From NCBI GenBank assembly GCA_019636195.1, contig JAHBYA010000006.1:61017-125016 (forward strand): a stretch of 64,000 nt of DNA, read 5' to 3'. Position numbers and translations under genes: made by a program. Under the pieces are notes generated by a model, which made no database searches, had not been told where the DNA came from, and worked only from the letters and a program-made list of their open reading frames with translations. Shown one piece after another: positions 1 through 56,749 of the stretch (position 1 is its first letter; each line of letters begins with the position of its first letter). The stretch is from Planctomycetota bacterium. Lineage in GTDB: Bacteria; Planctomycetota; UBA8742; UBA2392.

Positions 1-147
1 CGATCTCGTTGGCGATGTCGGTTACGTCGTCCTGGGCGTCTTCAGGCAAATTGCGCGGCGCGCCGTGCGGGCCGGGCGCGCCATGGTCGCTGTTGGGACG
101 ACGCTCTGTCATGAACGCAACAGCCTACGCCAATGTGCGCCATCAAT

Positions 148-855: not shown

Positions 856-987
856 CGCGTTTCCGCCACCGGGTTACGCCCGTGGTTCTTGTGGACACTA
901 TTGATAGCATCGCGCCCAGCGACTTGCGCCCCCTGGAACCTGAAACCTGCACCCTGAAACCTGATTTCCCCCTATACTCCGCGCCCT

Positions 988-2339: not shown

Positions 2340-2399
2340 CGCTGCCCCCGGTCTTTCAGCTTAACGCCCCACGGGCAGTCATCAGTCCGGATTTCGACG

Positions 2400-2429
2400 T
2401 TGCAAGCCTGATCGGGGCGGGCGTACACT
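2400..2429 (+). promoter_or_regulatory. Candidate sigma70-like promoter (TTGCAA-N18-TACACT) for the beta-helix gene pair
   Basis: Hexamers located 25-55 bp upstream of ATG 2455. Confidence 0.3.
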
Positions 2430-2454
2430 CAGGCATCCATCAACAGGAGTCCGC

Positions 2455-7892: not shown

Positions 7893-8963
7893 TTACTTGT
7901 AGCGGCTGATGGCAAGCGCGAGCGTGTCGATCATGCCCTTGGCGGCTTCACGGGCCTGCTCTGTCTTGCCCTCTTTGGCCAGTTGCTTCACCCACGCGAG
8001 GCTTTCGTCGTACGCCACGGACTGCAGTTGCTGGCTGATGTGTTCAGCGAGCGCTGGGTGGGACTCAAGGTGCATCACCAGCAGACGCGCGCACTTTTCG
8101 CGAATGCGCTCGCCCTGTTCCTTGACCATCGCGCCGCGGGCCTGCCAGCCGCCGCGCGAGCCCAGCGTGCCCACGCCCAACAGCAGGGCGCGCACAAACG
8201 CCTCGTCGGCAGCCAGCACCTCATTGGCCAGCCGCGACTCCATGGCGTCAAAGGCCTTGTCGTCGGCGACGCGCCCCAGCGCGTAGCAGCAGGTCTCGCG
8301 CAAAGCTTTGGGGTGGGCTGCATCGTCAATGATGGCGCACAGTTCAACGATCGCATCCACGCCGCCGGTCTGGCCGTAGCTGACGGCTGCGTCGCGGCGC
8401 CATGCATCGGGCAGCGCCTTGTCTTTCAGCGCAGCCAGCATGGCAAAGCGCGCCCGGGTGTCGGCGTGAAAGCCTGGCACGTACAGCAGGGCATGGGCAA
8501 GCGCATTGCGCTCAGCCATGCCGGCTTCGCCTTTGCTGAAGGGCCTGGCATCAAGCGTCCAGTGCCACCGCTCCAGCAGCAGCGGGACAAACTCCTTGCC
8601 GGGGTGCGACAGTTCCTGGACACAGCCGGGCGCGGGTTTGCGGAACTCGCGGTACACTTCAGGGTTGATGCCGGGCGGGTTGTCAATCACTGCCACCGTT
8701 TCGGGGTGCAGGATGCGCAGACGCGCGGCCTCAGCGGCCATGGCGCGAACCCAGCCGCTTTCGGTCCACTGATCATCTGCGGACGCGGCAGCAAGTGCGG
8801 GGACGGCGGCGTCGCCCTTGGCGACCAGCTTGTCACGAACTGCGATCCACCCGGCGTGGTCGCCGGGCGCGGCTTCGACGGCCTTGTCCAGCAGCTCGCT
8901 TACGGACTGCGCTGCCAGCAGGGGCGCAAAGAGCAACGGAAGAATGGCAACTCGAATGGTCAT
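7893..8963 (-). CDS. Secreted alpha-helical (HEAT/ARM-like repeat) hypothetical protein
   Basis: Signal peptide MTIRVAILPLLFAPLLAAQ. Helical repeat composition. Same strand and nearly contiguous with the PAD-like gene. Confidence 0.5.
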   Translation of the reverse strand: MTIRVAILPLLFAPLLAAQSVSELLDKAVEAAPGDHAGWIAVRDKLVAKGDAAVPALAAASADDQWTESGWVRAMAAEAARLRILHPETVAVIDNPPGINPEVYREFRKPAPGCVQELSHPGKEFVPLLLERWHWTLDARPFSKGEAGMAERNALAHALLYVPGFHADTRARFAMLAALKDKALPDAWRRDAAVSYGQTGGVDAIVELCAIIDDAAHPKALRETCCYALGRVADDKAFDAMESRLANEVLAADEAFVRALLLGVGTLGSRGGWQARGAMVKEQGERIREKCARLLVMHLESHPALAEHISQQLQSVAYDESLAWVKQLAKEGKTEQAREAAKGMIDTLALAISRYK

Positions 8964-8987: not shown

Positions 8988-11096
<2,109 letters not shown>

Positions 11097-11254
11097 AGGA
11101 CCCCCCACGTCGGGTTTGGATAGTTGTTGTTCTATAGTAACAAACGGTGTCACATCCTTACGCGCCCACCGAAAAATGAACCGTTACACGTCCATTACGG
11201 CATTCAAGCAACAACCCTCAGTTGCAATTGAACTTACGGCTCGCGGAGGCTTGC

Positions 11255-27219: not shown

Positions 27220-29868
27220 ATGCGCTTTGCTTTGAAGGTGCGCCTTGCGGCGCTTTGTTTGTTGGTTGCTTCGGCCACACTGCTCAACGGCCAGTACATC
27301 ACGCCTGAGGTTGAACCAAACAATGATTTTACCATGCCCCAGGCGCTGACGCTGGTCAACGGCTCGGCCCGGCTGCGCGGCAACATCTTCCCGAATGGCG
27401 ATCTCGACTTCTACTCGTTCAGCGGCAACACCGGCGACCGCGTGTTCGCGGCGACCATGACTTCAGCCAGCGCCAGCGCCAGCACGGACAGCCTGCTGCA
27501 ACTGATTGCCCCGGACGGCACGACAATCATCGAAGCCGACGACAACGACGGCACATTTAGTGGATCTTCCTCGTCAATTGCCGGCGCCACACTGACCAGC
27601 ACCGGCACCCATTACCTCCGGGTTACGCACGCCAGCCCGACCAGCCAGTTGCGCTTCTATGACCTGTATTTGCGTGTGGTACCGGCAGCTACGGTTTTTA
27701 CTGCCGAATCCGAACCCAACAACGATATCGCCAGCGCGACTGTCCTTGGCGCCGACCTCGTCGCCAGCGGCAGCGTCAACCCGGCCGCGGACGTTGACTA
27801 CTTTGCGATTGACCTGAACGCCGGCGACACCGTTTTCCTCAGCCTTGACCTTGACCCCGAACGCGACGGCACCACGTTCAACGGAAGACTTGGATTTGGC
27901 CCCTTAGGCGGATTCTTACTTGTTGCCAACGACGCCTCGGTGACTTCCCCGAATTCCGAGGCACACTTCTACACCGTTGCCACTTCGGGCACTTACTACA
28001 TCTTCGTGGATGAACAGGGTGGCGGCGGCGGCGCTACGTTCACTTACCGTCTTGCGGTCGCCGTGTTTCCAGACGTCACAATCGGCACGCGGATCGTTTA
28101 CAGCAGCACATCGACGCCGGAGGCGATTCCAACCACCGCCGGCGGTCTGGTTCTGAACACGGTCACAGTGCCGGATAACCGCCGGATCGGCCGGTTGGCT
28201 GTGGCCCTGTCCATCTCCCACGCCACCGTCGCGGACCTCGACATTTGGCTGACTTCGCCCAGCGGCACCAACGTTCACCTTGCCACGGACGTGGGCGGCG
28301 CCACGGGCATGTCCTGCGTACTGGATGAGTATGCAGGGAATGTGGTCGGTTCGTTCACCGTCCTCCAGAACGCCTGGCTGCAGCCTGAACTGAACGGTCG
28401 GCTTTCCTGGTTCAATGGGATGTCATCTGCGGGTACTTGGACTCTCAACATCGCCGTGGACACTGCCGGTGCGGGCGGAACGCTGGACTTCTGGGCGCTG
28501 GTCATCGAAGACGAGCCGATCCCGGCGCTGAGCGTTGCGCCCTACACACTGCAAACGGTGTTCAGCAGCGACTTTGAAGCCAACGACGGCGGCTTTACTC
28601 ACAGCGGCACCCAGGACGAATGGGAGCGCGGCACGCCCACGTTTGCGCCGATTATCAGCGCGTTCAGCGGCACCAACTGCTGGTGCACGGATTTGGACAA
28701 CACATACAACGCGAGTTCTGACCAGACGCTGGTTTCGCCGCCCATCGACCTGACAAACTATGTGGCGCCGATCCGCGCACGCTGGGCCATGGCCCATCAG
28801 ATGGAAAGCGCGACCTTTGACACGCTCAGAATCGTCGTGCGCGAAGTGGGCAACCCCTCCTTCGCTGTCACGCTGTACACTTGGCTTGGCGCGACCCAGA
28901 CCATTTCAGCCGGCAATCCGGCGGCCACGATCCAGCAGTCGCTGGGTTGGGGGCAGTTCTATGGCGACATCTCTGCGCTGGCGGGACTGACTGTCGAGTT
29001 TGTCGTGCAATTGACCAGCGACACATCCGTCCAGTACGCCGGCGTGGCGATTGACGACGTCATGATCGAAGGCGCCCTGAACCAGGCGCCCGTCTATACG
29101 CCGCCCGCGGGCAACGTGATCCGCGGCCAGCAGTCCGGCGCCAACGACAGCAACATCGGCACGATCTCAGACGCCGAGACACCCGTGACGTCCATGGGCC
29201 TGATCATCATTTCGGCCGCACCCACAGGCGTCACGTTCGGGACGCCGTATGCTAACGTCTCGGGCGCACTGATGCTGCCCATCACCATGAGCATGGCGGC
29301 AGTGATCGGCACATACCCGATTGACCTTATCATCGTCGATGGCGACGGTGGCCTTGACAGTGGACAGTTCATCCTTGAGGTTGTCGCCGGTACAGCCGGG
29401 ATAGCCAACAACCCGCCCGTGTACACACCGCCCGCGGGCAACGTGATCCGCGGCCAGGAGTCGGGCAGCAACGGCAGCGCCATCGGCACAGTATCGGACG
29501 TTGAGACACCCGCGGCATCGCTGGTGGTCGCGATCACAAGCGCGGCCCCGACAGGCATCACCTTCGGGACACCGACCGTGAACGCCTCAGGCGTAGTCAC
29601 GCTGCCGATCACCATGACCACGGCGGCTGTGATCGGCACATACCCGATCGACCTTACCGTCACCGACGGCGACAGCGCGGTCACGAACGGCCAGTTCACA
29701 CTGGAAGTCGTGGCTGGCAGCGCTGGCGGCGGCGGCGGCAAGAAGAAGGGCGGGGGCGGCGACGACAAAAAATGCAGCGCCGACGCGACCTCGTCATGGC
29801 AATGGCTTGCACTGCCGGGCCTGCTTGCGGTGCTGGCCCTGCGCAGACGCCGAACAGCCCGCGCATGA
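27220..29868 (+). CDS. Large secreted protein with PPC domains, proprotein-convertase P-domain, two tandem 109-aa repeats and C-terminal Cys/TM/Arg sorting tag
   Basis: AGGAG RBS. Signal peptide. PPC motifs VEPNNDFTMPQA..DLDFYSF and SEPNNDIASATV..DVDYFAI. P-domain-like ADLDIWLTSPSGTNVHL. C-terminal GGGGGKKKGGGGDDKKC-SADATSS-WQWLALPGLLAVLAL-RRRRTARA. Confidence 0.75.
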   Translation: MRFALKVRLAALCLLVASATLLNGQYITPEVEPNNDFTMPQALTLVNGSARLRGNIFPNGDLDFYSFSGNTGDRVFAATMTSASASASTDSLLQLIAPDGTTIIEADDNDGTFSGSSSSIAGATLTSTGTHYLRVTHASPTSQLRFYDLYLRVVPAATVFTAESEPNNDIASATVLGADLVASGSVNPAADVDYFAIDLNAGDTVFLSLDLDPERDGTTFNGRLGFGPLGGFLLVANDASVTSPNSEAHFYTVATSGTYYIFVDEQGGGGGATFTYRLAVAVFPDVTIGTRIVYSSTSTPEAIPTTAGGLVLNTVTVPDNRRIGRLAVALSISHATVADLDIWLTSPSGTNVHLATDVGGATGMSCVLDEYAGNVVGSFTVLQNAWLQPELNGRLSWFNGMSSAGTWTLNIAVDTAGAGGTLDFWALVIEDEPIPALSVAPYTLQTVFSSDFEANDGGFTHSGTQDEWERGTPTFAPIISAFSGTNCWCTDLDNTYNASSDQTLVSPPIDLTNYVAPIRARWAMAHQMESATFDTLRIVVREVGNPSFAVTLYTWLGATQTISAGNPAATIQQSLGWGQFYGDISALAGLTVEFVVQLTSDTSVQYAGVAIDDVMIEGALNQAPVYTPPAGNVIRGQQSGANDSNIGTISDAETPVTSMGLIIISAAPTGVTFGTPYANVSGALMLPITMSMAAVIGTYPIDLIIVDGDGGLDSGQFILEVVAGTAGIANNPPVYTPPAGNVIRGQESGSNGSAIGTVSDVETPAASLVVAITSAAPTGITFGTPTVNASGVVTLPITMTTAAVIGTYPIDLTVTDGDSAVTNGQFTLEVVAGSAGGGGGKKKGGGGDDKKCSADATSSWQWLALPGLLAVLALRRRRTARA
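29080..29733 (+). repeat. Intragenic tandem repeat, 2 x 327 bp (2 x 109 aa)
   Basis: Units begin NQAPVYTPPAGNVIRGQQSG... and NPPVYTPPAGNVIRGQESG.... A 30-nt identical core (ccgcccgcgggcaacgtgatccgcggccag) occurs at 29101 and 29428. Confidence 0.8.
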
Positions 29869-31337: not shown

Positions 31338-32381
31338 GTGGCAACCACTGAACGCGTCAAAATCGCCGTTATCGGCGTTGGCCACCTTGGCAAGAATCAC
31401 GCCCGCGTGCTGAAAGAGCTGCCGACCGCAGAGCTTGTCGCCGTGGTTGACAGCGACCCCAAGAAGGCCGCCGAAATCGCCGAGCGCTTTCACTGCCAGG
31501 CGCTGACCGACTACAAGCAACTCAAGGGCAAGGTGGACGCTGTCAGCGTCGTCGTGCCCACCCGCCACCACTACGAAGTCGCAAGCTGGGCCTTTGAAAA
31601 CGGCTTGCACGCGCTGGTGGAAAAGCCGATGGCATACTCGGTGGATGAGTGCCACAAGCTGATCGAACTGGCCAAGAAGCACAAGCGCATCCTGCAGGTC
31701 GGCCACATCGAGCGCTTTAATCCTGCACTTTCGAGCATTCGCAACGCCATCAATACGGTGGCGTTCATTGAAGCCGACCGGCTCTCGCCCTACCCGTTCC
31801 GCAGCACTGACGTGGGCGTGGTCATGGACGTGATGATCCACGACCTTGACATCATCCTCAGCATCGTCGGCAGCGAGGTCGAAGACATCCAGGCTGTGTG
31901 CACACCCGTGCTGTCCAAGCGCCATGAAGACATCGCCAGCGTGCGCCTTACCTTCAAGAACGGCAGCGTGGCCAACATCACAGCCAGCCGCATCAGCGAC
32001 AAGAGCGTGCGCAAGATGCGCATCTTCTGCGCTGACCGGTACCTGAACCTGGACTTTGCCGGCAAGCAGGCGTGGATTTACAGCAAGACCCCCAAGCTGG
32101 ACCAGGCGGATTTCCACGTTGAGAACGTCGATATCACCGGCATTGATGACTTGATGCAGTTCGTGTTCAACGACCTGATCCGGGTTGAGCAGGTGGTGAT
32201 CGGCGAAGAAGAACCACTAAAGGAAGAGCTGAAGCATTTCATCAACGCGATTCGCACCGGCGCCCGTCCCCAGGTCGGCGGCGAAGAAGGCATGGCGGCC
32301 ATCCAGCTCGCGCACGACATCTTGAAAGCGGCGCGCGACCACTACAACCGGCACGTGCCGGAAGAACATCGCCGCTGGTAG
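31338..32381 (+). CDS. Gfo/Idh/MocA family NAD(P)-dependent oxidoreductase
   Basis: N-terminal Rossmann motif KIAVIGVGHLGKNH. EKP motif. C-terminal alpha/beta domain typical of the family. Confidence 0.8.
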   Translation: MATTERVKIAVIGVGHLGKNHARVLKELPTAELVAVVDSDPKKAAEIAERFHCQALTDYKQLKGKVDAVSVVVPTRHHYEVASWAFENGLHALVEKPMAYSVDECHKLIELAKKHKRILQVGHIERFNPALSSIRNAINTVAFIEADRLSPYPFRSTDVGVVMDVMIHDLDIILSIVGSEVEDIQAVCTPVLSKRHEDIASVRLTFKNGSVANITASRISDKSVRKMRIFCADRYLNLDFAGKQAWIYSKTPKLDQADFHVENVDITGIDDLMQFVFNDLIRVEQVVIGEEEPLKEELKHFINAIRTGARPQVGGEEGMAAIQLAHDILKAARDHYNRHVPEEHRRW

Positions 32382-32621
32382 CGCGACCCGACGCACATTC
32401 TTGCCCAAAATTTCGTGGATTGTTACGGAACCTCACCATTGTGGGGTCGGTCTATGTTCCCAAACGGTGCCATGAAGTGGCACGGTTGGTGTATCCATTC
32501 GTTACCGGCAAGGAATTTGATCGTTACCGATTCGACACCATGCGCGTAACTTATTATTCCAATACATCTTACGGTCGTAACCTACTCGCATTTCAGGCTT
32601 GACTTGACTCGCCCAAAGAAT

Positions 32622-32637
32622 TGGCACACACCCTGCA
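32622..32637 (+). promoter_or_regulatory. Sigma54-type -24/-12 promoter element (TGGCAC-N5-CTGCA) upstream of VWA copy 1
   Basis: TGGCACacaccCTGCA with GG-N10-GC spacing, about 50 bp upstream of ATG 32687 in an AT-richer intergenic island. Confidence 0.45.
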
Positions 32638-32686
32638 AAGCAATTAGCCAGCTAACCGTTTTCAAACCAACCATCGGGACCCAAAC

Positions 32687-33125
32687 ATGCGCAAGCTTAT
32701 CGCCTCACTCGCAGTGTTCGCGCTCTTCGGCTTCGCCGCCGGGTTGAACGCTCAGGCGCCCAACCCCCAGGCTGAGATCAAGAGCCCGGACGCCAACAAG
32801 CCGAACACGCACGACCGTTCGGCTGGCCATGCAGTGATCAAGGTGCCGTCGCCGGCGACTCCTCCGACGACCCCGCCGGAACCTGCTCCGCCCCCGCCCC
32901 CGCAGAACCCCACGCCTCCCAGTGAAGGCGAAGACATTCCGCCCAGCGAAACACCCCCGGACCCGCCGCCGCCGGAAGATCCGCCGACCTACTACGGCGA
33001 GCCGGTGCAGGGCAAGTTCGCCTTCATCTTGGACGCCAGTGGCAGCATGTATGGGAGCCGCGTCGCCAGCATGCGCGCTGAGACCACGGCTGTGATCCAG
33101 GACCTGACCGAGAACGACGAACTCG
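32687..33125 (+). repeat. Near-identical duplicated segment (5' part of VWA copy 1), about 85-90% nt identity to 35157-35595
   Basis: Stretches of 60-80 identical nt (e.g. aacaagccgaacac.cacgaccgttcggctggccatgcagtgatcaaggtgccgtcgccggc). Reflects the tandem gene duplication. Confidence 0.7.
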
Positions 33126-33514
33126 ACGCAGTTGCCTTCGGCGACCAGTTCGGCGCGGCTCAGCACTACAGCGTCTTCATGTGGGGCGCCCTGCTGCCCG
33201 CCACGGACGGCAACAAGTCCAGCGCGATCTCGTGGGTCAACGGCTCTGCGACGAACCCCGGCGGCGGTACCCCGTCGTACGCCTGCCTCAAGCGCAGCTG
33301 CCAGATCTACCCCGCCGACCTCGACAAGATGTTCTTCCTGAGCGACGGCTACCCCAACACCAGCGGCAGCGCCAGCCAGATTCTGGCTGACTTCCCCGGA
33401 TGGTGGAACAAGTTCACCGACTGCACCTTGGTCTGCATCTGCATCGGTGGCGGCGGCGCCAGCTTCATGCAGCAGCTTGCGGCACTCGCCGGCGGCATCT
33501 ACATCGCGGCTTAG
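32687..33514 (+). CDS. Secreted von Willebrand factor type A (VWA) domain protein with Pro-rich linker (copy 1)
   Basis: Signal peptide. PTPP-rich spacer. MIDAS motif DASGSM. FFLSDGYP. A sigma54-like element lies 50 bp upstream. Confidence 0.75.
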   Translation: MRKLIASLAVFALFGFAAGLNAQAPNPQAEIKSPDANKPNTHDRSAGHAVIKVPSPATPPTTPPEPAPPPPPQNPTPPSEGEDIPPSETPPDPPPPEDPPTYYGEPVQGKFAFILDASGSMYGSRVASMRAETTAVIQDLTENDELDAVAFGDQFGAAQHYSVFMWGALLPATDGNKSSAISWVNGSATNPGGGTPSYACLKRSCQIYPADLDKMFFLSDGYPNTSGSASQILADFPGWWNKFTDCTLVCICIGGGGASFMQQLAALAGGIYIAA

Positions 33515-33560
33515 ACAAAACCAAAGCAACCAACAGCGCCTGTTGGGAAGCTTGGAGGAC

Positions 33561-33582
33561 AGGGGGGCCGCAAGGCCCCCCT
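33561..33582 (+). terminator. GC-rich hairpin (possible terminator/attenuator) after VWA copy 1
   Basis: AGGGGGGCC-gcaa-GGCCCCCCT. The downstream U-tract is weak. Confidence 0.4.
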
Positions 33583-33644
33583 GAGGCATTTGTCGCCCGG
33601 TTTCTGTTCCTGTTGCGCCCCCGCTTGCTAACCTGAAACCCGCC

Positions 33645-34871
33645 ATGGACAACGATCGACGCAAGTTTCTGCACTACGCGGCCGCCATCACCGGCGTTTC
33701 AGTGCTTGCCGCATGCGGCGACAAGCCGGCAAACAATGCCGGGCCCGCCAACACGGCCGCGCCTGACGAGCCGGAGCCAACACCCGAGATTGTCGATACC
33801 CCCGGCAAGCGCGGCATGCTGATCGGCCCCGGCAGCGCCAGCGGTGAGACCAAGTGCTGGCTGACGTTCATCGCGCTCGACCACGTTGAAGAGTACGCCA
33901 CCGGCAAGCGCAAGGTTGACCGCCTGCCGATTGCGTTTCCCGGCCACGCCGTCGTGCCCCACCCGACCCAGCCGCATCTGGCAGCCGTGTTCCAGAAGTG
34001 GGGACCGGGCGCCTGCGAAGTTGACCTGGTAGAGCGCAAGGTCACCCGCCCCATCACCACCGTGCCCGAGCGCATGTTCTACGGCCATGGCGCCTGGTCC
34101 AGCGACGGCAAGCTGCTTTACGCCGTTGAAAGCACAGACCCCAAGCTCGGCCCCTATGAAGGCTCGGTCGTTGTGCGCGATGCCGGCAACCTGCGCATCA
34201 TGGCTGAGTTCCCGACCTACGGTATGCAGCCCCATGACTGCCACCTGCTGGACGACGGCCGCACACTCGGCATTACCAACGGCGGCGGCCCCCCCGGCGG
34301 CAACGAGCCGGGGTGTGTCACTTTCGTGGATATCCAGACCCAGGCGCTGCTCGAGAAGGTCACGATCCCGGAGCTGATGGCCGGCCACCTGATGACCAGC
34401 GGGCGCAGCAGCAAGGGCGACCTGGCGGTCGGCTGTACGCCGCATTCGCCACCGGGCACCGGGCCTGAAGGTTTCAAGACTGTGCCGGGCGGGTTGGCCC
34501 TGCGAGCGGCGGGCAGCAAAGACCTGAAGCTGATGCGCCAGCCGGCCACGGTCACGGGCAAGATGCTGGGCGAAACACTCAGCCTTGCAATCCATGAGCG
34601 GCGCGGAATTGCGGGCGCCACCAACCCGGCAGGAAACATCGCGACGTTCTGGAAGGTCGCGACCGGCGAACTGATCAAGAGCTTTGAGCTTCCGGTTGCC
34701 CGCGGCATCGGCCTTACGCTGGACAACACACATTTCCTGGTCAGTTACGGCATGGACGCCAGCCTGGTGATGATTCGGGCCTCTGACCTTGAGCTTGTGC
34801 CCGCCACACGGCTGACCGGCGACAACAAGTCGTATGTAACGGGCTCGCATTTCATCACTTACGACCTTTAG
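33645..34871 (+). CDS. Tat-signal lipoprotein, beta-propeller-like (DUF1513-like) (copy 1)
   Basis: Twin-arginine motif RRKFL. Lipobox LAAC. Propeller-like repeats (YGHGAWSSDGKLLY...). DUF assignment from memory only. Confidence 0.6.
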   Translation: MDNDRRKFLHYAAAITGVSVLAACGDKPANNAGPANTAAPDEPEPTPEIVDTPGKRGMLIGPGSASGETKCWLTFIALDHVEEYATGKRKVDRLPIAFPGHAVVPHPTQPHLAAVFQKWGPGACEVDLVERKVTRPITTVPERMFYGHGAWSSDGKLLYAVESTDPKLGPYEGSVVVRDAGNLRIMAEFPTYGMQPHDCHLLDDGRTLGITNGGGPPGGNEPGCVTFVDIQTQALLEKVTIPELMAGHLMTSGRSSKGDLAVGCTPHSPPGTGPEGFKTVPGGLALRAAGSKDLKLMRQPATVTGKMLGETLSLAIHERRGIAGATNPAGNIATFWKVATGELIKSFELPVARGIGLTLDNTHFLVSYGMDASLVMIRASDLELVPATRLTGDNKSYVTGSHFITYDL

Positions 34872-35080
34872 CCCGAGTGTTACCGGCGGCTCGCCCGCTA
34901 ACCGCGCGTTCTGCGCCGTCCGGGACATTGGGTTCCAAGCTGGCTGAGCGACGTTCCCGGCCGGTATCAAGGATCGTAGCACTCAATGATAACCTCAGTG
35001 TCACCGCCAAGTGCGGTCGCAAGTCACCTGTTTTACAGGCTTTACGAGGCCAGTCGCTAAGCCCCTGTGTGCAGGAAATT

Positions 35081-35096
35081 TGGCACGCAGACTGCT
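35081..35096 (+). promoter_or_regulatory. Sigma54-type -24/-12 promoter element (TGGCAC-N5-CTGCT) upstream of VWA copy 2
   Basis: TGGCACgcagaCTGCT, about 60 bp upstream of ATG 35157. Same element type as at copy 1. Confidence 0.45.
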
Positions 35097-35156
35097 CTGA
35101 TTTCAATGAGGACAAGGCTTAAACCCTTCTAAGACCCTAGGCACAAGGAACTGGAA

Positions 35157-35595
35157 ATGCGCAAAGTTATCGCAGCTTTCGCGATCTTTGGCTTGCTCGG
35201 GTTCGCCGCCGTTGAGCTGAACGCTCAGACGACGCCGCAATCCGAGATCAAGAGCCCCGACGCGAACAAGCCGAACACCCACGACCGTTCGGCTGGCCAT
35301 GCAGTGATCAAGGTGCCGTCGCCGGCTACACCCCCGACGACACCGCCGGAACCGGCGCCTCCGCCGCCTCCGCAGAACCCCACGCCCCCGAGCGAGGGCG
35401 AGGACATTCCGCCCAGCGAAACACCCCCGGATCCCCCACCGCCGGAAGATCCGCCGACCTACTACGGCGAGCCGGTGCAGGGCAAGTTCTGCTTCGTGCT
35501 GGACGCCAGCGGCAGCATGTACGGCAGCCGTATCGCCAGTCTGCGCGCTGAAACAACCAGCGTGATTCAGGACCTGACCGAAAACGACGAGCTTG
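35157..35595 (+). repeat. Duplicated segment partner (5' part of VWA copy 2)
   Basis: See 32687-33125. Confidence 0.7.
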
Positions 35596-35981
35596 ACTGC
35601 TGCGCTTACGGCGGCCAGTTCGCGGCGCCCAACCACACCGTGTTCATGTGGGGTGCACTGCTGCCTGCCACCGACGGCAACCGCAGCAGCGCCATCAGCT
35701 GGGTCAACGGTCCCACCACCAACCCCGGTGGCATGACCCCCAGCTACGCGGCCCTGAAGCTTTCGTGCCAGACCTACCCAGCCGACCTTGACAAGATGTT
35801 CTTCGTCACCGACGGCTACCCGAACATCACCGGCAGCGCCAGCCAGATTCTGGCTGACTTCCCCGCCTGGTGGAGCAAGTTCACGGACTGCACGCTGATC
35901 TGCATCTGCATCGCTGGCGGCGGCGCGAGCTTCATGCAGCAGCTCGCGGCACTGGCCGGCGGTGTGTACATCGCAGCCTAG
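35157..35981 (+). CDS. Secreted VWA domain protein (copy 2, paralogue of 32687-33514)
   Basis: About 83 aa identical to copy 1 (EIKSPDANKP...GEPVQGKF), then about 90% identity. MIDAS motif DASGSM. Sigma54-like element upstream. Confidence 0.75.
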   Translation: MRKVIAAFAIFGLLGFAAVELNAQTTPQSEIKSPDANKPNTHDRSAGHAVIKVPSPATPPTTPPEPAPPPPPQNPTPPSEGEDIPPSETPPDPPPPEDPPTYYGEPVQGKFCFVLDASGSMYGSRIASLRAETTSVIQDLTENDELDCCAYGGQFAAPNHTVFMWGALLPATDGNRSSAISWVNGPTTNPGGMTPSYAALKLSCQTYPADLDKMFFVTDGYPNITGSASQILADFPAWWSKFTDCTLICICIAGGGASFMQQLAALAGGVYIAA

Positions 35982-35999
35982 TTGCACAAGCCACGAATC

Positions 36000-36029
36000 G
36001 GGGGAGCCTGCGGGCTCCCCCTTTTCATT
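36000..36029 (+). terminator. Rho-independent terminator after VWA copy 2
   Basis: GGGGGAGCC-tgc-GGGCTCCCCC followed by TTTTCATT. Confidence 0.65.
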
Positions 36030-36062
36030 GCCCGCTTCAGCCCAGCTTGACACAATAGACCC

Positions 36063-37268
36063 ATGGGTCCGATTCCGACCAACCCTGATCGTCGTCGCTT
36101 CCTGGCGGGCACCGCAGCCGCCAGCCTGCTTGTCGCCTGCGGTAAACCCGCCGAAAACGCGCCCGCGAACCGGGGCGAGCCTGAGCCCCCAAAGCCGCGC
36201 GAGTTCAAACGCGGCAACCTGGGCACCGTGATCGGCGGCGGCGTCGCCGTAACCGATGCCGGCAAGGCCTGGTTCGTCGGCATCGTCAACCTTGACGCTG
36301 AAAGACCCACGGCCGCGACCATCGACGACATCGGCTTTCTGGGCCACGGCTTCACGCCCAACCCGGTAAAGCCGGAAACTGCCGTCGTCTGCGAAAAGCA
36401 CGGCCCCGGCTGCTGCGAAATCGACCTGGTCAAGCGCCGCGTGCTGCGCCGCATCAAGACCACCGCCGGCCGACAGTTCTATGGCCACGGGGCATTCTCG
36501 CCCGACGCAAAACTGTTCTATTGCACCGAAGCTGAAACCGGAAACTACAGCTACAAAGGCGTACTGGCTGTGCGTGACGGCGCCAGCTTTGAGTTGCGCA
36601 GCGAGAGTTTCCCGACCCATGGCGTGGCGCCACACGACTGCATTCTTGTGGACAACGGCGAAACGCTGGTGATCACCAACGGCGGCGGCCCGGTCGACAA
36701 GCCGGACGAGCCCGCCAGCGTGGCCTATGTCGATGTGAAGTCCGGCAACGCCCGCCGCGTGCTGAAGTTCCGCGACGACAAGATCAACGCCGGGCACATC
36801 GCCATCACCGGCAAGGGCGAGCTGGTGTGCGTGTCAGCCCCCCGCGACGGCATTGAACAGAAGATCAAGGGCGAACCCAACCCCGACTGGGTCGGCGCGA
36901 TCACGTTCTATGACCCCGCGACCGACAAGCTGACCACCGCCGAGGACCCGATCCGCGAAAAGATGAAAGGCGAAACGCTCAGCGTTGCGATCCATGAACC
37001 CAGCATGATCGTGGCGGCGACGAATCCCGCGGGCAACTTGCTCACGTTCTGGGATTTCAAGACCGGCAAGCTGGTGCACAGCATTGAGGGCGAGTTCAAG
37101 TCGCCGCGCGGCGTAAGCCTGACGCTCGACGGCAACTACTTCGCGGTCACCTATGACCAGGAGACGCACCTGGCGTTGATTGACGCGCAGACCTTCAAGG
37201 TGATTGAGCAAAGCAAGGTTGACAGAACCTTCATCTCGGGCAGCCACAACATCGTCTATAAGCTGTAG
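36063..37268 (+). CDS. Tat-signal lipoprotein, beta-propeller-like (copy 2, paralogue of 33645-34871)
   Basis: RRRFL Tat motif. Lipobox LVAC. Shared motifs YGHGAFSPD, PHDC, ITNGGGP and C-terminal ...GSH.I.Y.L. Confidence 0.6.
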   Translation: MGPIPTNPDRRRFLAGTAAASLLVACGKPAENAPANRGEPEPPKPREFKRGNLGTVIGGGVAVTDAGKAWFVGIVNLDAERPTAATIDDIGFLGHGFTPNPVKPETAVVCEKHGPGCCEIDLVKRRVLRRIKTTAGRQFYGHGAFSPDAKLFYCTEAETGNYSYKGVLAVRDGASFELRSESFPTHGVAPHDCILVDNGETLVITNGGGPVDKPDEPASVAYVDVKSGNARRVLKFRDDKINAGHIAITGKGELVCVSAPRDGIEQKIKGEPNPDWVGAITFYDPATDKLTTAEDPIREKMKGETLSVAIHEPSMIVAATNPAGNLLTFWDFKTGKLVHSIEGEFKSPRGVSLTLDGNYFAVTYDQETHLALIDAQTFKVIEQSKVDRTFISGSHNIVYKL

Positions 37269-37300
37269 GGTTCGGAGTGCCGGGTAGCAGTTCGTCGTTG

Positions 37301-37356
37301 GAAACCCGGAACCCGGAACCCGGAACTCAGAACTCGGAACTCAGAAGCCGGAACTC
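37301..37356. repeat. Eight tandem copies of heptamer GGAACYC (GGAACCC/GGAACTC/AGAACTC/AGAAGCC variants)
   Basis: Read directly from the sequence. Intergenic, 50-100 bp upstream of the coiled-coil gene. Confidence 0.8.
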
Positions 37357-37404
37357 ACCACCGCTCTCGTTTCCATCCTGCGCTGCCTTTGCTAAAACAG
37401 CCGC

Positions 37405-39672
37405 ATGGCCCGCAACAAGCCTGAGCCCGTCGATGAAGGCGCCATCCTGCGCGAGATTGCCACGCGCAAGATTGAAGCCGAGCGCCTGCGCGTGCAGCAG
37501 CTCGCCGCCGAGAACGAAAAACTGCGCGCCATCGCCGCCGACCTTCAAAAAAAGATCAGCGTCGCCAACGCCCGCACAGCCGAGCTGGAAAAGAAACTGA
37601 AGTTCGGCCTGACCGACGCGGAAAAGCAGTTCCAGCAGGATCTGAAAGGCGAGCGCGAAAGCCTGTCGTCCGAGATCAAGGATCTCAAAGAGCGCCACGC
37701 CATCGAGATCCAGCGCGAACGTGACCGCTGGGAAAAGCGCCTCACCGACATGGAGGCCCGCCACGCCAAAGACGTCGAACGCCTGCAAGCCAAGGGCGAG
37801 CGCGAAATCCAGAAGGTGCAGGGCACAGCCGAAACCATCGAGCAGCGCCTGACCGACCTGCAGGAATCGCTCGACAATGAACGCAAGGCCCGGCAGGAAG
37901 CCGAGGCCCGCCTGCGCGGCCTTGACCAGACCGCCAAGCGCATCGGCGTGCGCACCGGCCAGGTGACGGGCTTTGAAGCCGAAACACCCGAAGAACTGCT
38001 GGAAGTGCTGAGCGAAGTCGATGGCGAAGCGCCGCTGAAGTTGCTGCGCACCAGCGTGCGCGACCTGCGCGCCGCCGCCGCCAGCGTCGAGCGCGCCTTT
38101 GCCCGCGCCGTAAAGTCGGAAGACCAGAAGGGCGAGCTGCACGACGCCGGCGTAGCCTTTGCCGAGGCGCGCGCATTGCCCGAAACTGAAAGCATCCCGC
38201 CCGCCAGCGCCATGCTGATCGAGGAAGCCTTCAACATGATCAGCGAAGAAGTGGCTGAGCGCATCAAGGGCCGCCACTACTCGGCACTGATCAGCGCCAT
38301 GGCCAACGAGCTGGTGCGCGTGCTGCGCAACCAGCGCGAAGGCATGGACAAGATGCAGCGGCTGGTCGAAATTGCCGAAGGCACCGAGCTCGCCACCAGC
38401 GCGCGTCTGCTGCTCAAGGGCGCGACCAACCACCAGCAGGAAGTCGCGGCCGCCAAGCTGCTGCAGGACGAGCTCAAGCAGGTGCAGGCCCAGGCCCGCG
38501 AAGAAAAGGGCAAGGTCAAGAAGCTGTACGCCAGCGCCGAAAGCGGCATGGCCGGCGAGTGGGCGCTCAATGCCATGCAGGCAATCGCAAGCCTGCAACC
38601 GCTGCCCGCCCCCGACCGCGAAGCGATCAAGCGCCCGCTGTACAACCGTGTCGTCGAAAGCGCCAAGCTGGTGCAGCAGCGCATTGACGCCGCCATCAAC
38701 CTGGGCGCCGAAGCCGAGGCCGCCCTGCGCGAAGCCGACGAGGCTTTCTCCGGGCTGGAAGGCGTGATGGCCAACATGAGTGAAGTAGTGATGGCCGCCC
38801 GCCGCCAGCTCATGAGCAAGGTCGAGGGCGAACAGGACGCGCGCCTCAAGCTTGAGGCCGCGGCCCGCGCCCTCAGCGAAGTCGGCAAGCGCGGCCTGCG
38901 CGCGGTCGGCATTTTCAACGACGCTTTCAAGTCCGTTGAAATGCTGCTGACCCAGTGGAAAGCCACCTACAAGGCCTACACCGGCCTTGCCCGCGACATG
39001 GACCGCATCGAGGGCAGCATCGAAGGCGCCATGCTCGATATCAACCAGCCGCTGGAATCAGAACAAGGCAAGAAGCTGTACGCAATTATCCACGACCTGA
39101 GCGCGCACCTGCCTGAGTTCCGCAGTCTCCAGATTCTGCGCCAGCGCCTGTTCTTTCACCTCGAAAACGCCAAGCAGCGCCTGCCTGAGCTCAAGGCTGT
39201 GCGCGACACCGCCCACCGCATCATGCGCGCCGTCGGCGAGCCCGACCACCACGACCACGTGCGCCAGTACCAGCTTGCCATGGCGCGCCTGTACGACACC
39301 TGGGCCTACCTTGAAGAAGTGCGCGGCGGCACCCACAGCCAGCTGGCCGTCGCCGCCGAGCAGATTGAGCCCCTGATCTCGGAAACGCTGCTCTGGCTCA
39401 GCAGCACCAACATTGACCAGGTCAGCGACAGCGAGCGCGATGAGGCCATGTACACGGCCGCATACGTCCGCAGGCTCAAGCGCCACGTGCTGGGCATTCA
39501 CGACCTCGCGCAGCAAAGCCGCGGCAGCGGCACCGAACTGACGGCGCAGTTCGAGCATCGCCTTGACCACATGCAGTACCCGCCGGACTGGGCCCACGTG
39601 CTGCACCGCCTGAAAAAGCAGGGCGGCCCGCAACACGACGATGCGGTCCACCCCACCGAACGCGAACGCTAG
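37405..39672 (+). CDS. Large cytoplasmic coiled-coil protein (755 aa), function unknown
   Basis: No signal peptide. N-terminal approximately 200 aa of heptad-rich E/K/R/L-rich sequence. Clean coding composition. No Walker motifs. Confidence 0.6.
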   Translation: MARNKPEPVDEGAILREIATRKIEAERLRVQQLAAENEKLRAIAADLQKKISVANARTAELEKKLKFGLTDAEKQFQQDLKGERESLSSEIKDLKERHAIEIQRERDRWEKRLTDMEARHAKDVERLQAKGEREIQKVQGTAETIEQRLTDLQESLDNERKARQEAEARLRGLDQTAKRIGVRTGQVTGFEAETPEELLEVLSEVDGEAPLKLLRTSVRDLRAAAASVERAFARAVKSEDQKGELHDAGVAFAEARALPETESIPPASAMLIEEAFNMISEEVAERIKGRHYSALISAMANELVRVLRNQREGMDKMQRLVEIAEGTELATSARLLLKGATNHQQEVAAAKLLQDELKQVQAQAREEKGKVKKLYASAESGMAGEWALNAMQAIASLQPLPAPDREAIKRPLYNRVVESAKLVQQRIDAAINLGAEAEAALREADEAFSGLEGVMANMSEVVMAARRQLMSKVEGEQDARLKLEAAARALSEVGKRGLRAVGIFNDAFKSVEMLLTQWKATYKAYTGLARDMDRIEGSIEGAMLDINQPLESEQGKKLYAIIHDLSAHLPEFRSLQILRQRLFFHLENAKQRLPELKAVRDTAHRIMRAVGEPDHHDHVRQYQLAMARLYDTWAYLEEVRGGTHSQLAVAAEQIEPLISETLLWLSSTNIDQVSDSERDEAMYTAAYVRRLKRHVLGIHDLAQQSRGSGTELTAQFEHRLDHMQYPPDWAHVLHRLKKQGGPQHDDAVHPTERER

Positions 39673-53634: not shown

Positions 53635-53872
53635 TGTGCGCAACTACAGTCACAAGTCAGGTTCCGTCGCACAATTTTGTTTACAATTCGAGTTTCGATT
53701 CTGATTCTTGGATCATCAAGATTCAGTAGTTCTTGCAACGGCAAAATTGTGCAGTATGGGCATTAGCCGAATTCCTTTGCACCTAAACCGTTTTCGCTTC
53801 TCGCCCGTTGTGCAGGCGTGCCACACTTCAAGTAATTCCTGATTGTTGTCAGCACCTTGCAAGGGGACTGCC

Positions 53873-55396
53873 ATGGTGAACCGGCTTCCTGCGCTGGTGT
53901 TCTGGGCCGCAGCAATCGGGTTGATCGTGTTCTCGACGGGCTGCGTGCAGGAAGGCGGCAAAGCCGACCTTGCACCCGCAGCGGAAGAGGACCTCAGCCC
54001 GGTTACCCAGATCAGCCAGAACGACCGCATCTTCTTTCTCAAACGTACGCACTTTGCGTTCCGGCCCACGGAACTGCAGACGCTGAACCAGATGGGGTAC
54101 GAACCGTACCTTGACTGGATGCTGACGCTGCAACAGGACCCGGCCCTTGAGGCCGCGGCGCTGGCCGCCACGGTGGCCGACGTCGAGTTTCCCAGCACAG
54201 CCGAGCTGTCGCGCTGGTGGTGCTGGCTGATGGTGCACAACCCCAACGCGTTTCAAGAGCGACTGGCGCTGTTCTGGCACGACCACTTCGCGACCAGCAC
54301 CGACGTGCTTGAAGCCGGCGAGCGCTACTGGTTCTTCAACCACATCAACCTGTGGCGCTTCCAGGGCACCAGCGGCCTGCCCGACCTGCTGCACAACATG
54401 AGCATCGACTGGGCGATGCTGAAGTGGCTCGACGGCTACGTCAGCACCCGAACCGCGCCCAACGAGAACTTCGCCCGCGAATTCTGGGAGTTGTTCACGC
54501 TCGGCGCCGACAACGGCTACACCGAGGCCGACATCCAGGAAGCAAGCCGCGCCTTTACCGGCTACCGGCGCATCTTTGTGCCGGACGCGGCGGGGCCGGG
54601 ACGTGACCAGTTCATCATGCAATGGGACCCGAACCGCCACGACAACACCTCAAAGTCGATCTTCGGCCAGACCTTCGCCGGAAACGGCCAGCAGGAGTAC
54701 CGCGACATGGTGACGTTCACGCTGTCTCACCGCGGCGTGGCCGAGTTCATCGCGCGCAAGATATGGGAAGAGTTTGTCTATGAAGACCCCAGCCCCGGAC
54801 TGGTCAGCAAGCTGGGCAAAAACCTGCGCGGCAAGAACTACGACCTGCGCGCCTTCCTAAAGATGATCTTCACTTCCAAGGCTTTCTTCAGCAGCCGCGC
54901 GCGCCAGAGCATCATCAAGAACCCGATCGAGCACCACATCGGCTTCATGCGCGCCACCGGCCTTGAAATCACCACCAACCGCATGGACAGCAACCTCAAC
55001 ACCATCGGCCAGCGGCCCACCCAGCCGCCCACCGTCAACGGCTGGCCCAGCGGGTTCTTCTGGCTGAGCAGCCAGGCGATGGTCGAGCGCGCGAACTTCT
55101 TGCGCGACTGCGTGTACTACCGCGCCGAGGCGCCGCAGGTCGGGTACGACGTAAGCACGCTGATCCTGCCGAACGAGACTGCGGACTGGCAGGTCGTGGA
55201 CCGGCTGGCCTTCCTGTTGCAGGTCAAGCTGACCGCCGCCCAGCGCGACGAGTGCATCCTGTACTTGAACTCGGACCGCAACAGCGGCGGCGTGTTCAGC
55301 CAGACCTGGGACTTCGGCGATGCCGTGCAGAAGGAAAAGAAGATTCGCGGGCTGCTTTACATCCTTGGCCAGCACCCCACCTATCACCTTCGGTGA
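53873..55396 (+). CDS. DUF1800 family protein
   Basis: Length and organisation typical of DUF1800, immediately upstream of a DUF1501 gene. Signal/anchor MVNRLPALVFWAAAIGLIVFSTGC. AAGGGGA RBS. Confidence 0.75.
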   Translation: MVNRLPALVFWAAAIGLIVFSTGCVQEGGKADLAPAAEEDLSPVTQISQNDRIFFLKRTHFAFRPTELQTLNQMGYEPYLDWMLTLQQDPALEAAALAATVADVEFPSTAELSRWWCWLMVHNPNAFQERLALFWHDHFATSTDVLEAGERYWFFNHINLWRFQGTSGLPDLLHNMSIDWAMLKWLDGYVSTRTAPNENFAREFWELFTLGADNGYTEADIQEASRAFTGYRRIFVPDAAGPGRDQFIMQWDPNRHDNTSKSIFGQTFAGNGQQEYRDMVTFTLSHRGVAEFIARKIWEEFVYEDPSPGLVSKLGKNLRGKNYDLRAFLKMIFTSKAFFSSRARQSIIKNPIEHHIGFMRATGLEITTNRMDSNLNTIGQRPTQPPTVNGWPSGFFWLSSQAMVERANFLRDCVYYRAEAPQVGYDVSTLILPNETADWQVVDRLAFLLQVKLTAAQRDECILYLNSDRNSGGVFSQTWDFGDAVQKEKKIRGLLYILGQHPTYHLR

Positions 55397-55444
55397 GCAA
55401 GGGGCGACAGACCGGATGAAAAGGCAAACCCACAGGAGCGAACC

Positions 55445-56749
55445 ATGAACCGCAACCTCAAAAGCACCGCCCGCCGCAACTTCCTGCGCGTAAGCGCCGG
55501 CGCCGCGGGCGTCGCCGCGCTGGGCGCCGTGACCGGCAACGGGCATACGCCGCTGAAGGCGGCTGCGCTGCCCAACCACAAACGGCTTGTCATCGTCAAC
55601 ATGCTGGGCGGCAACGACGGTCTCAACACCGTGTTCCCAGTGACCGGCGCGGAAGCTGCCGCCTACCTGAACAACCGCCCCACGCTCGGTTTCGCGCAGG
55701 GCCAGGGCCTGAGCCTGACCGGCGGGCCCGGCGTCAGCGAGTACGAGTTGCACCCGTCGCTGGTGAACTTCCAGGCGCGCTGGAATGCGGGGCAGATGGC
55801 CGTGATCCACAAGGTCGGCTACCCGCAACAGAACCTCAGCCACTTCGTCAGCGAAGATATCTGGAGCTACGGCACGCGCAGCGGGCTGGGCTCGCTGGTC
55901 GGCATGGCCCCGGGCTGGGTCGCCCGCTACGGCAACACCTACGCCCCCACCACGATGGGTGTGGTCAGCATCGGTGTCGGCCGGCGCCTAGACTTCGCGG
56001 GCGCGAACGTCAACCCGTTTCTGGTTTCCAGCGTCGCAAGCTTCAACTATCGCACCGACTTCAACTACACCCAGAACCACGCCCTGCGCCTGCAAACCAT
56101 CCAGAACATCCTGGCCCTGCAGCCTGCCGGCGACATTGTCGGCGACATTGCCGCCGCCGGAAGCTCGGCTTTCTCGGCAGCGGCGCAGGTGCAGCAGGCC
56201 GCCAGCGACTACACGGCGTGGGCTGCGGGCAACTCGATCGTGTACCCCAACACCTCGATGGGCAACCGCCTGCGCGACATCGCGACGCTGATCCACGGCA
56301 CCACCGCCACCGGCGGCTTTGAGTCGCGCGTCTTCTACACAGGCTATGGCGGCTTTGACACGCACAGCAACCAGCTCACGGCGCACGCCGGCCTGCTTAC
56401 GCAGCTCGATAACGCGCTGGGCGTCTTCTACACCGACCTGGTGGCGCAGGGAGTCTGGAACGACACCGTGCTTGTCGTGATCAGCGAGTTCGGGCGCCGC
56501 AACTATGAAAACGGCAGCAACGGCACCGACCATGGCCACGGCAACTGCGTGCTGGTGGTCGGCGGGCCCGTCAACGGCGGCTTCTACGGCACGCTGCCCA
56601 GCGTTGCCGACCTGAACATGGGCCACCTCAACTACAACACCGACTTCCGCGACGTGTACCGCGCCCTGCTGATGCAGCACCTGGCGCACGACCCCACGCC
56701 GCTGTTTCCTGAAACACAACCGACCAACAACGTGCCCAACCTCGTGTGA
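55445..56749 (+). CDS. DUF1501 family protein (sulfatase-like fold), Tat-secreted
   Basis: Tat motif RRNFLRVSAGAAGVAALGA. Conserved DUF1501 blocks (LVIVNMLGGNDGLN, FGRRNYENGSNGTDHGHGN). AGGAG RBS. Confidence 0.85.
   Translation: MNRNLKSTARRNFLRVSAGAAGVAALGAVTGNGHTPLKAAALPNHKRLVIVNMLGGNDGLNTVFPVTGAEAAAYLNNRPTLGFAQGQGLSLTGGPGVSEYELHPSLVNFQARWNAGQMAVIHKVGYPQQNLSHFVSEDIWSYGTRSGLGSLVGMAPGWVARYGNTYAPTTMGVVSIGVGRRLDFAGANVNPFLVSSVASFNYRTDFNYTQNHALRLQTIQNILALQPAGDIVGDIAAAGSSAFSAAAQVQQAASDYTAWAAGNSIVYPNTSMGNRLRDIATLIHGTTATGGFESRVFYTGYGGFDTHSNQLTAHAGLLTQLDNALGVFYTDLVAQGVWNDTVLVVISEFGRRNYENGSNGTDHGHGNCVLVVGGPVNGGFYGTLPSVADLNMGHLNYNTDFRDVYRALLMQHLAHDPTPLFPETQPTNNVPNLV

Follow-up and report, generated by a model that had tools for sequence, protein, structure and literature searches.

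In this study, we analyzed a 64,000-nt window of contig JAHBYA010000006.1 of a Planctomycetota bacterium (assembly GCA_019636195.1), in which four open reading frames (ORFs) follow one another on the forward strand in the order VWA1, PROP1, VWA2 and PROP2. VWA1 (32687..33514, 275 aa) and VWA2 (35157..35981, 274 aa) encode paralogous exported proteins with a von Willebrand factor A (VWA) domain, and PROP1 (33645..34871, 408 aa) and PROP2 (36063..37268, 401 aa) encode beta-propellers of the DUF1513 family. The region comprises two autonomous VWA transcription units interleaved with two anciently diverged DUF1513 lipoprotein genes. The best explanation of the system as a whole, to which we assign a probability of about 0.5, is that a secreted VWA head is produced under sigma-54 control and that the DUF1513 propeller is its likely partner. 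An initial annotation of this DNA had reported the same four ORFs, all of which were recovered, and had described them as a tandemly duplicated two-gene cassette with each copy behind a sigma-54 promoter, a description that our comparison with related loci does not support.

Sigma-54-type promoters upstream of the VWA genes

Two -24/-12 elements of the sigma-54 type were located on the forward strand, namely P1 (TGGCACacaccCTGC, 32622..32636), 65 nt upstream of the ATG of VWA1, and P2 (TGGCACgcagaCTGC, 35081..35095), 76 nt upstream of the ATG of VWA2. Both have the exact GG-N10-GC spacing within TGGCAC-N5-xTGC, and they are the only exact matches to TGGCACNNNNNYTGC (TGGCAC-N5-YTGC) on either strand of the window. 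The number of matches is at chance level, with 1.1 expected and at least two found in 31 of 100 shuffled sequences; therefore, the evidence for the promoters must rest on their position and conservation. For this purpose, the window was compared with 37 related loci (numbered L001 to L037) from 21 Planctomycetota metagenome-assembled genomes (MAGs), and motifs were scanned over 474 kb on both strands. Among the 41 VWA gene starts scored in the window and these loci, 40 were preceded by TGGCAC-N6-YGC at a distance of 50-111 nt in the gene orientation. The motif is kept amid otherwise diverged DNA, and its distance to the ATG varies. As for the flanks of these 40 promoters, T precedes TGGCAC in 31, a purine follows it in all 40, T precedes GC in 34 and A or T follows in 35; by sequence, these preferences follow the sigma-54 consensus. 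In total, 62 promoter-motif matches were found in the 474 kb, about 45 of which are VWA promoters and about 17 of which lie elsewhere, and none was found 5′ of any DUF1513 gene. The sigma-54-type promoters before the VWA genes are thus very probably real. The elements at 32622 and 35081 proposed in the initial annotation were thereby substantiated across the 21 MAGs, and an excess of the motif over background was borne out by its placement and conservation but not by its count in the window.

That TGGCAC-N5-xTGC is a chance feature, or the site of some other conserved factor, appears highly improbable. Such a reading would agree with the raw count in the window, with the base before the -12 TGC, which is usually C, G or A and not the consensus T, and with the finding that neither rpoN nor a gene for an activator (bacterial enhancer-binding protein, bEBP) was found in the 64-kb window by a Pfam scan of 38 proteins and by six-frame motif searches. 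It would leave unexplained the exact spacing and single orientation of the motif before 40 of 41 genes, its constancy while the distance to the ATG varies, the agreement of its flanks with the sigma-54 consensus, the second conserved element at enhancer distance described below, and its presence 5′ of Hsp20 genes. Within the same phylum, R. baltica has an rpoN gene, RB6491 (PMC2754498).

A six-frame search of the window and all loci for GAFTGA, the GESGTGKE Walker A motif and the RpoN box yielded a sole match, in L037 (Planctomycetaceae MAG_30). The product of the gene in question (19-3498, forward strand) is 1159 aa long, is of the STAND/AAA-TPR-Sigma54_activat type (E 4e-74) and contains GAFTGA, and the gene lies directly upstream of a distant VWA homologue (3746-4666, forward strand; 34% identical). 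This STAND-TPR-Sigma54_activat protein is a candidate for the type of the cognate activator.

The promoter motif also occurs outside the VWA genes. Hsp20 (PF00011) genes at the second VWA locus described below have their own TGGCACG-N5-GTGC motif, located 52-62 nt upstream where the start is clear. The sites, all on the reverse strand, are at 9856 in L007, 12177 in L021, 12186 in L020, 12687 in L022, 10378 in L025 and 10241 in L026. Thus, six of the about 17 non-VWA matches precede Hsp20 genes, and these genes are without the VWA upstream element, which suggests that they may be a second class of sigma-54 targets with a different activator. In E. coli, the Hsp20 gene class is sigma-54-driven (ibpB).

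Candidate enhancer sites

A second conserved element of 16 nt (GTTYCC-N4-GGTRYC) was found on the forward strand farther upstream, 166 nt upstream of P1 (GTTCCCAAACGGTGCC, 32456..32471) and 128 nt upstream of P2 (GTTCCCGGCCGGTATC, 34953..34968). When the search pattern GTTYCC-N4-SGTDBC was applied to the 474 kb, 37 matches were obtained on both strands. Of these, 33 have a TGGCAC promoter 123-177 nt downstream on the same strand, and in 31 of the 33 cases an intact VWA gene comes next. The window holds only the matches at 32456 and 34953, and no match was located 5′ of any DUF1513 gene. Given its position at enhancer distance, we infer that the upstream element is a candidate bEBP binding site, and together the predicted element and promoter have the anatomy expected of enhancer-dependent promoters.

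In addition, the VWA1 regulatory region contains five GTTAC/GTAAC boxes (32422..32581, forward strand; at 32422, 32501, 32523, 32546 and 32577), and VWA2 has one, at 34879; their background density in the window is 0.77 per kb. The 6-mers GGTAAC, GTAACA and CGTTAC are 8- to 14-fold enriched in the 220-nt stretches that precede 36 VWA promoters. The boxes are candidate sites for a second regulator or for the activator.

Hairpins and boundaries of the VWA unit

A GC-rich hairpin of -24 kcal/mol follows each VWA gene on the forward strand, in agreement with the initial annotation. Hairpin 1 (CAGGGGGGCC-GCAA-GGCCCCCCTG, 33560..33583) has no clean U-tract and may be either a stabiliser of the mRNA 3′ end or a terminator. 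Hairpin 2 (GGGGGAGCC-TGCG-GGCTCCCCC, then TTTTCATT; 36000..36021) has a U-tract and looks like an intrinsic terminator. Hairpins of this family are situated 20-55 nt 3′ of the VWA genes and consist of a 9-10 bp G/C stem with a GCAA, GAAA, TTCG or TGCG tetraloop, at about -24 kcal/mol. Every occurrence of the form GGGGAGCC-tetraloop-GGCTCCCC (GGGGRGCC-loop-GGCYCCCC) in the 474 kb lies 3′ of a VWA gene or a VWA remnant, and the propeller genes have nothing similar behind them (z about 0). Because the hairpin is restricted to VWA 3′ ends, a generic terminator or a repetitive extragenic palindromic element was rejected as its identity. An Rfam scan of the window matched no family; hence, the hairpins and 5′ untranslated regions (UTRs) correspond to no known RNA. 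Since the VWA ORF alone is flanked by promoter, upstream element and hairpin, the repeated unit, as predicted from these features, is upstream element, promoter, VWA ORF and hairpin, and the propellers stand outside it.

Conservation of the 3′ UTR extends past the hairpin (window 33515-33600; L002, L003, L004, L005, L008 and L015) and includes a small stem, CAACAGCGCCTGTTGG, then AAGCTTGGAGGA, the GC hairpin and AGGCATTT. This region could be a 3′-UTR-derived RNA or a processing site. Besides, a remnant of a VWA unit was noticed in L013 (5159-5700), which retains the upstream element (5159), a TGGCAC promoter (5325) and, at 5679, the hairpin of the family, with about 340 nt between promoter and hairpin and no VWA ORF called there. 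Probably, it represents either a degraded copy or a short transcript.

A clade-specific family of exported VWA proteins

VWA1, which is identical in sequence to NCBI protein KF696_08295, consists of a Sec signal peptide (about residues 1-24), a conserved D-A-N-K..H-D-R..G (HDR) motif, a Pro/Glu-rich arm up to about residue 100 and a C-terminal VWA head. Its metal ion-dependent adhesion site (MIDAS) is complete (D116, S118, S120, T195 and D220). D116, S118, T195 and D220 are invariant and S120 is conserved in at least 90% among 94 homologues, and all five residues are invariant in a set of 28 sequences. The Pfam scores are below the gathering cut-offs (PF00092, 16.5 bits against 23.8; PF13519, 16.5 bits against 27; E about 0.01), and some homologues carry precomputed matches to PF13768 or PF00092. 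The family profile matches the VWA domain of ITIH1 (E 1e-7), and there is a partial match to TIGR03788 (‘sortase target’; E 1e-7). In an AlphaFold2 model of VWA1, residues 100-275 have a pLDDT above 90, and a Foldseek search of the PDB with this model returned the VWA domains of ITIH1, ITIH4, CLCA1, alpha2delta and CMG2 (E 3e-10 to 1e-6). The VWA identity of both proteins is therefore secure despite the sub-threshold Pfam scores, because it is based on the invariant MIDAS, the ITIH1 profile match and the predicted fold. The exported MIDAS VWA protein of the initial annotation is thus supported.

The family gave 127 matches, of which every one with a named source belongs to Planctomycetes/Planctomycetota, and it has no Pfam or NCBIfam model of its own. 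Judging from these matches, it is restricted to one Planctomycetota clade, and nothing on it was found in the searched literature. Compared with the MIDAS VWA domains of ITIH, CLCA1, alpha2delta and VIT-VWA proteins, the window proteins have the same complete DxSxS..T..D MIDAS and fold and are likewise predicted to be exported; they differ in being about 20% identical, in lacking a VIT domain and an LPXTG signal, and in carrying a compact head (about 170 aa) at the C-terminus of a 275-aa protein with a Pro/Glu-rich arm.

An exhaustive profile search returned 53 cluster representatives at E <1e-30 and 381 at E <1e-10. The same VWA subtype was found at the extreme C-terminus of several proteins with 6-14 He_PIG/PKD Ig-like repeats (E 1e-35 to 1e-72 for the family profile). 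An Ig-repeat stalk with a distal binding head is a classic surface adhesin architecture. By this likeness, the VWA domain of the window proteins may be a distal head on an extended stalk, in which a polyproline-like segment of about 70 aa stands in place of the 6-14 Ig domains. An adhesion or binding role, as put forward in the initial annotation, fits these proteins because the same subtype tips the He_PIG/PKD Ig-repeat proteins, and the analogy supports an inducible, adhesin-like binding role for the VWA protein. In another relative, P0267, an extracytoplasmic function sigma factor (Sigma70_r2 and r4) is fused to this VWA subtype at the C-terminus.

DUF1513 propellers and the metal question

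PROP1 and PROP2 scored 108.2 and 109.8 bits, respectively, against DUF1513 (PF07433; cut-off 27), covering model positions 6-290 of 304, and they share 40-45% identity with family members from Proteobacteria, Myxococcota and Acidobacteriota. The predicted fold is a seven-bladed YVTN/lactonase-type propeller. As the initial annotation had noted, a twin-arginine translocation (Tat) motif followed by a lipobox is readable in both translations, DRRKFL...LAAC (Cys24) in PROP1 and DRRRFL...LVAC (Cys26) in PROP2; the RR pair is conserved in at least 90% of the family alignment. The Tat profile models scored just under threshold on the propellers (TAT_signal, 14.0 bits against 22.7; TIGR01409, 14.7 bits against 16.7). 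These data support PROP1 and PROP2 as DUF1513 proteins and putative Tat-lipoproteins. A sigma-70 consensus scan of 32000-38000 gave no site, and the propeller genes are therefore left without an assigned promoter. A weak TTGCCC-N17-CACAAT was seen by eye directly 5′ of the PROP2 start codon; it would mean an mRNA without a leader and is not claimed as a promoter.

Five histidines (H101, H148, H197, H248 and H402) are invariant in the DUF1513 alignment, along with E162 and E310. From strand periodicity, not coordinates, we infer that the five histidines are placed at the innermost strand of successive blades. This ring hints at a central metal site like that of NosZ or thiocyanate dehydrogenase, and such a candidate site would fit export by the Tat pathway. 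The nearest structures to the propeller are of the lactonase/YVTN types, and its structural neighbours also include NosZ, thiocyanate dehydrogenase, a selenium-binding protein and BtuG, a lipoprotein that captures B12. In Proteobacteria, DUF1513 genes are cofit with EfeO-like and DUF1111 genes, and mutants have metal-related phenotypes (bioRxiv 10.1101/072470); beyond this report, the searched literature yielded no other functional data on DUF1513/PF07433.

These properties raised the possibility of a metal (iron) acquisition module, in which DUF1513 would be a periplasmic metalloprotein and the MIDAS VWA protein would take over from the absent partners in capturing metal or ligand. The cofitness and mutant phenotypes, the five invariant histidines, the putative Tat signal and the structural neighbours speak in its favor, and a ferric-reductase-like gene lies 6 kb upstream of the VWA/propeller region. 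On the other side, no Peptidase_M75/imelysin/EfeO or DUF1111 match was found among the 38 window proteins in the Pfam scan or among the neighbours of the related loci, nor was a Fur-type signature found among the 38 proteins; control is by sigma-54-type promoters with no recognisable iron box; and a MIDAS normally binds ligands via Mg, Mn or Ca and does not transport metal. Moreover, the closest DUF1513 proteins outside the clade (Myxococcota and Acidobacteriota), like a third paralogue in MAG_44, are orphans in neighbourhoods without informative partners. We consider a metal module improbable. Compared with the proteobacterial operon (EfeO-like, DUF1111, EfeO-like, DUF1513), the window shares true DUF1513 proteins with a putative Tat-type signal, whereas it is without the EfeO-like/imelysin and DUF1111 genes, has two paralogues per locus that are both predicted lipoproteins, and places the pair in a lipid A gene neighbourhood beside sigma-54-type VWA genes.

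Synteny and history of the locus

The conserved order across the clade is lpxC, fabZ, a GFO/IDH oxidoreductase gene, one to three VWA units, PROP2 and a gene for a 755-aa coiled-coil protein (locus A). A VWA gene is directly followed by a DUF1513 gene in 14 loci from 14 MAGs, in addition to the two instances in the window, so that the pairing, which the initial annotation had proposed to look for in relatives, was found there. Even in the split locus of MAG_44, VWA still lies together with PROP2 and the coiled-coil gene (L023). PROP1 follows a VWA unit in the window, L005 and L001.

The four genes could also be read as the product of a recent tandem duplication of a VWA-propeller operon, each copy being transcribed as a unit from its sigma-54 promoter. 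The order VWA-PROP-VWA-PROP in the window and L005, the short gaps of 130 nt (VWA1-PROP1) and 81 nt (VWA2-PROP2), the lack of a detected promoter 5′ of the propellers and the gene-for-gene paralogy, which was verified, all favor this reading. However, VWA1 and VWA2 are identical at 234 of 276 residues (85%, E 1e-140) and PROP1 and PROP2 at 39% (E 8e-80), so that the two gene pairs differ in history. PROP1 and PROP2 each have orthologues of 52-73% identity across the clade and their split is therefore old; the identity data suggest that it predates the radiation of the clade. Against the duplicated operon stand also the positions of PROP1 between fabZ and GFO/IDH in five loci, the variable VWA copy number, a second VWA locus without a propeller, and the strong family-specific hairpin, with its U-tract after VWA2, which parts VWA from propeller. 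We regard the duplicated operon as improbable, and the cassette of the initial annotation was abandoned on the same grounds in favor of separate VWA units.

The VWA pair itself has a composite history. Residues 31-111 of VWA1 and VWA2 are identical, in keeping with the more than 80 identical residues reported at first; at the DNA level, the longest stretch without a mismatch measures 51 nt, and identity over 300 nt is 89%. The synonymous divergence (dS) between the two genes is 0.65 overall and 0.42 in the arm, with a dN/dS of 0.16. With a dS of about 0.65, the VWA duplication is not recent. The arms (residues 25-112) are 95-99% identical among locus-A paralogues of the same genome and 61-70% between distant genomes. 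By comparison, the heads group in part by gene position: that of VWA1 shares 84% identity with the head of the first VWA copy in Bin_90R and 82% with the head of VWA2, and VWA2 is the positional orthologue of the VWA gene preceding PROP2 in other genomes. Homogenisation of the arms by co-evolution with a shared partner was rejected, because the locus-A and locus-B arms of the same genome are only 51-61% identical; local gene conversion of the arm over older, functionally maintained head paralogues probably explains the data best. Of the two events offered by the initial annotation, recent duplication or gene conversion, only the latter is thus retained, as local homogenisation of the arms.

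Several observations weigh against the reading of a sigma-54-driven VWA head partnered by the DUF1513 propeller, in addition to the departure from the consensus T and the absence of rpoN and an activator gene from the window mentioned above. In five loci from five MAGs (L002, L008, L011, L014 and L019), PROP1 stands between fabZ and GFO/IDH and is not preceded by a VWA gene. A second conserved VWA locus (locus B) contains genes for a DUF6576 protein, a small Cys-rich protein, VWA and a phosphorylase-family protein, and here VWA occurs without a propeller in at least 12 loci. In L027 and L028 the order is VWA-VWA-coiled-coil, and the propeller is absent. With the orphan DUF1513 proteins outside the clade, these arrangements imply that the VWA-propeller link may be a matter of clade synteny. 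Furthermore, the full-terminator look of hairpin 2 argues against co-transcription of VWA2 and PROP2, and the N-terminal 100 residues of VWA1 are of low confidence in the AlphaFold2 model, where they are predicted to be extended or disordered.

The corresponding alternative is that VWA and DUF1513 are unrelated neighbours, with the VWA genes forming an independent sigma-54 stress or nutrient regulon and the DUF1513 genes encoding constitutive envelope proteins of the lpxC-fabZ lipid A cluster. The isolated PROP1 and VWA genes just described agree with it, as do the restriction of the promoter and upstream-element signature to the VWA genes and the fairly close relationship of all genomes with the pairing (VWA at least 57% identical). 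It is opposed by the VWA-PROP2 adjacency, which outlasts the split of the locus in MAG_44, and by the second adjacency, VWA-PROP1, in three loci. On balance, we judge unrelated neighbours to be rather unlikely, and the DUF1513 lipoprotein is, at roughly even odds, the most plausible membrane-anchored partner of the VWA protein.

Proposed mechanism and comparison with known systems

In the model that we favor, an enhancer-binding activator dedicated to these genes would bind about 125-175 nt upstream and turn on sigma-54 RNA polymerase in response to an envelope or nutrient signal. A hairpin-protected, largely monocistronic mRNA would then give a burst of VWA protein, which would be exported by Sec and whose head, on its extended polyproline-like arm, would bind an acidic ligand via the MIDAS metal in an adhesin-like manner. 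The membrane-anchored DUF1513 propeller would serve as a docking or partner protein, made in smaller amounts, either from transcripts that run through the hairpin or from a promoter of its own. The VWA head paralogues would stay distinct across species, and neighbouring arms would be homogenised by gene conversion.

Sigma-54-dependent structural genes such as those for pilin and flagellin have an upstream activator site, a monocistronic mRNA and a strong hairpin at the 3′ end. The VWA unit is arranged likewise, with its -24/-12 promoter, its upstream element 125-175 nt away, its lone ORF, the stable hairpin behind it and sequence exchange among tandem paralogues; it differs in that its product is a globular VWA protein and not a filament subunit. 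Control of genes for exterior components by sigma-54 is the theme announced in the title of PMC3162934, and the window region would fit that theme.

Integrin heads combine a VWA domain with a seven-bladed beta-propeller. The same two domains are found in PilY1, the tip protein of type IV pili (PMC11891296). The window shares with these systems a MIDAS-type VWA domain and a seven-bladed propeller, both predicted to be extracytoplasmic and encoded by neighbouring genes. However, the VWA protein and the propeller of the window are two polypeptides, each with a transcription unit to itself, the DUF1513 lipoprotein has a propeller of the YVTN/lactonase type, and the Pfam scan of 38 window proteins showed no pilin or minor-pilin genes. 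With its separate chains, its other type of propeller and the missing pilus context, the window system belongs to neither the PilY1 nor the integrin class.

As a speculative extension that we hold to be doubtful, VWA heads might dock via the MIDAS metal on DUF1513 propellers to form, on the planctomycete envelope, a two-chain adhesion or ligand-capture complex resembling integrin heads or PilY1, in which the paralogues would be exchangeable specificities and the quantity of head would depend on a dedicated sigma-54 activator. In another version, a fibre might arise if each subunit filled the MIDAS of the next with its acidic Pro-rich arm. If true, such a VWA-propeller partnership would be a bacterial two-chain analogue of integrin and PilY1 heads.

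The regulation described here is well supported and new in its detail; its components are all of known kinds, the function is a proposed one, and established knowledge is not contradicted. Our study defines a concrete sigma-54-type regulon, with promoter, candidate enhancer and target family, in an uncultured Planctomycetota clade represented by MAGs from activated sludge and anammox reactors. It provides a first plausible context for an unannotated, clade-specific family of secreted proteins, and it places the widespread DUF1513 family in a new genomic context, where the conserved histidine ring suggests a metal centre.

Neighbouring genes and repeats

The 755-aa coiled-coil protein encoded 3′ of PROP2 in the window (37405-39672, forward strand) and in nine other loci has no Pfam match and no signal peptide. 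Its gene stands 3′ of the VWA genes in L027 and L028, where the propeller is absent, and the protein may or may not be part of the VWA/propeller system. Between PROP2 and this gene lies a heptanucleotide tandem repeat (AACCCGG/AACTCAG, 7.4 copies, 37303-37357). Heptamer arrays of (CCCACTG)n and (AGGCAGG)n were also seen between VWA and PROP2 in L002 (about 8240-8440) and L008 (about 8130-8230), and a further heptamer array is present at 932-964 of the window.

Elsewhere in the window, an 882-aa exported protein (27220-29868, forward strand) has PPC, P_proprotein and MAM-like domains and a Gly/Lys-rich stretch; its gene contains an internal 327-nt tandem duplication (29087-29698), and its C-terminus, a hydrophobic segment followed by RRRR, resembles a sorting signal. 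At 8988-11153, the reverse strand encodes a protein-arginine deiminase with a PKD domain (PAD, E 3e-66), which is an unusual protein for a bacterium. Finally, a DUF1800/DUF1501 gene pair followed by a gene for a GSDH-type dehydrogenase was found at 53843-56749 on the forward strand.

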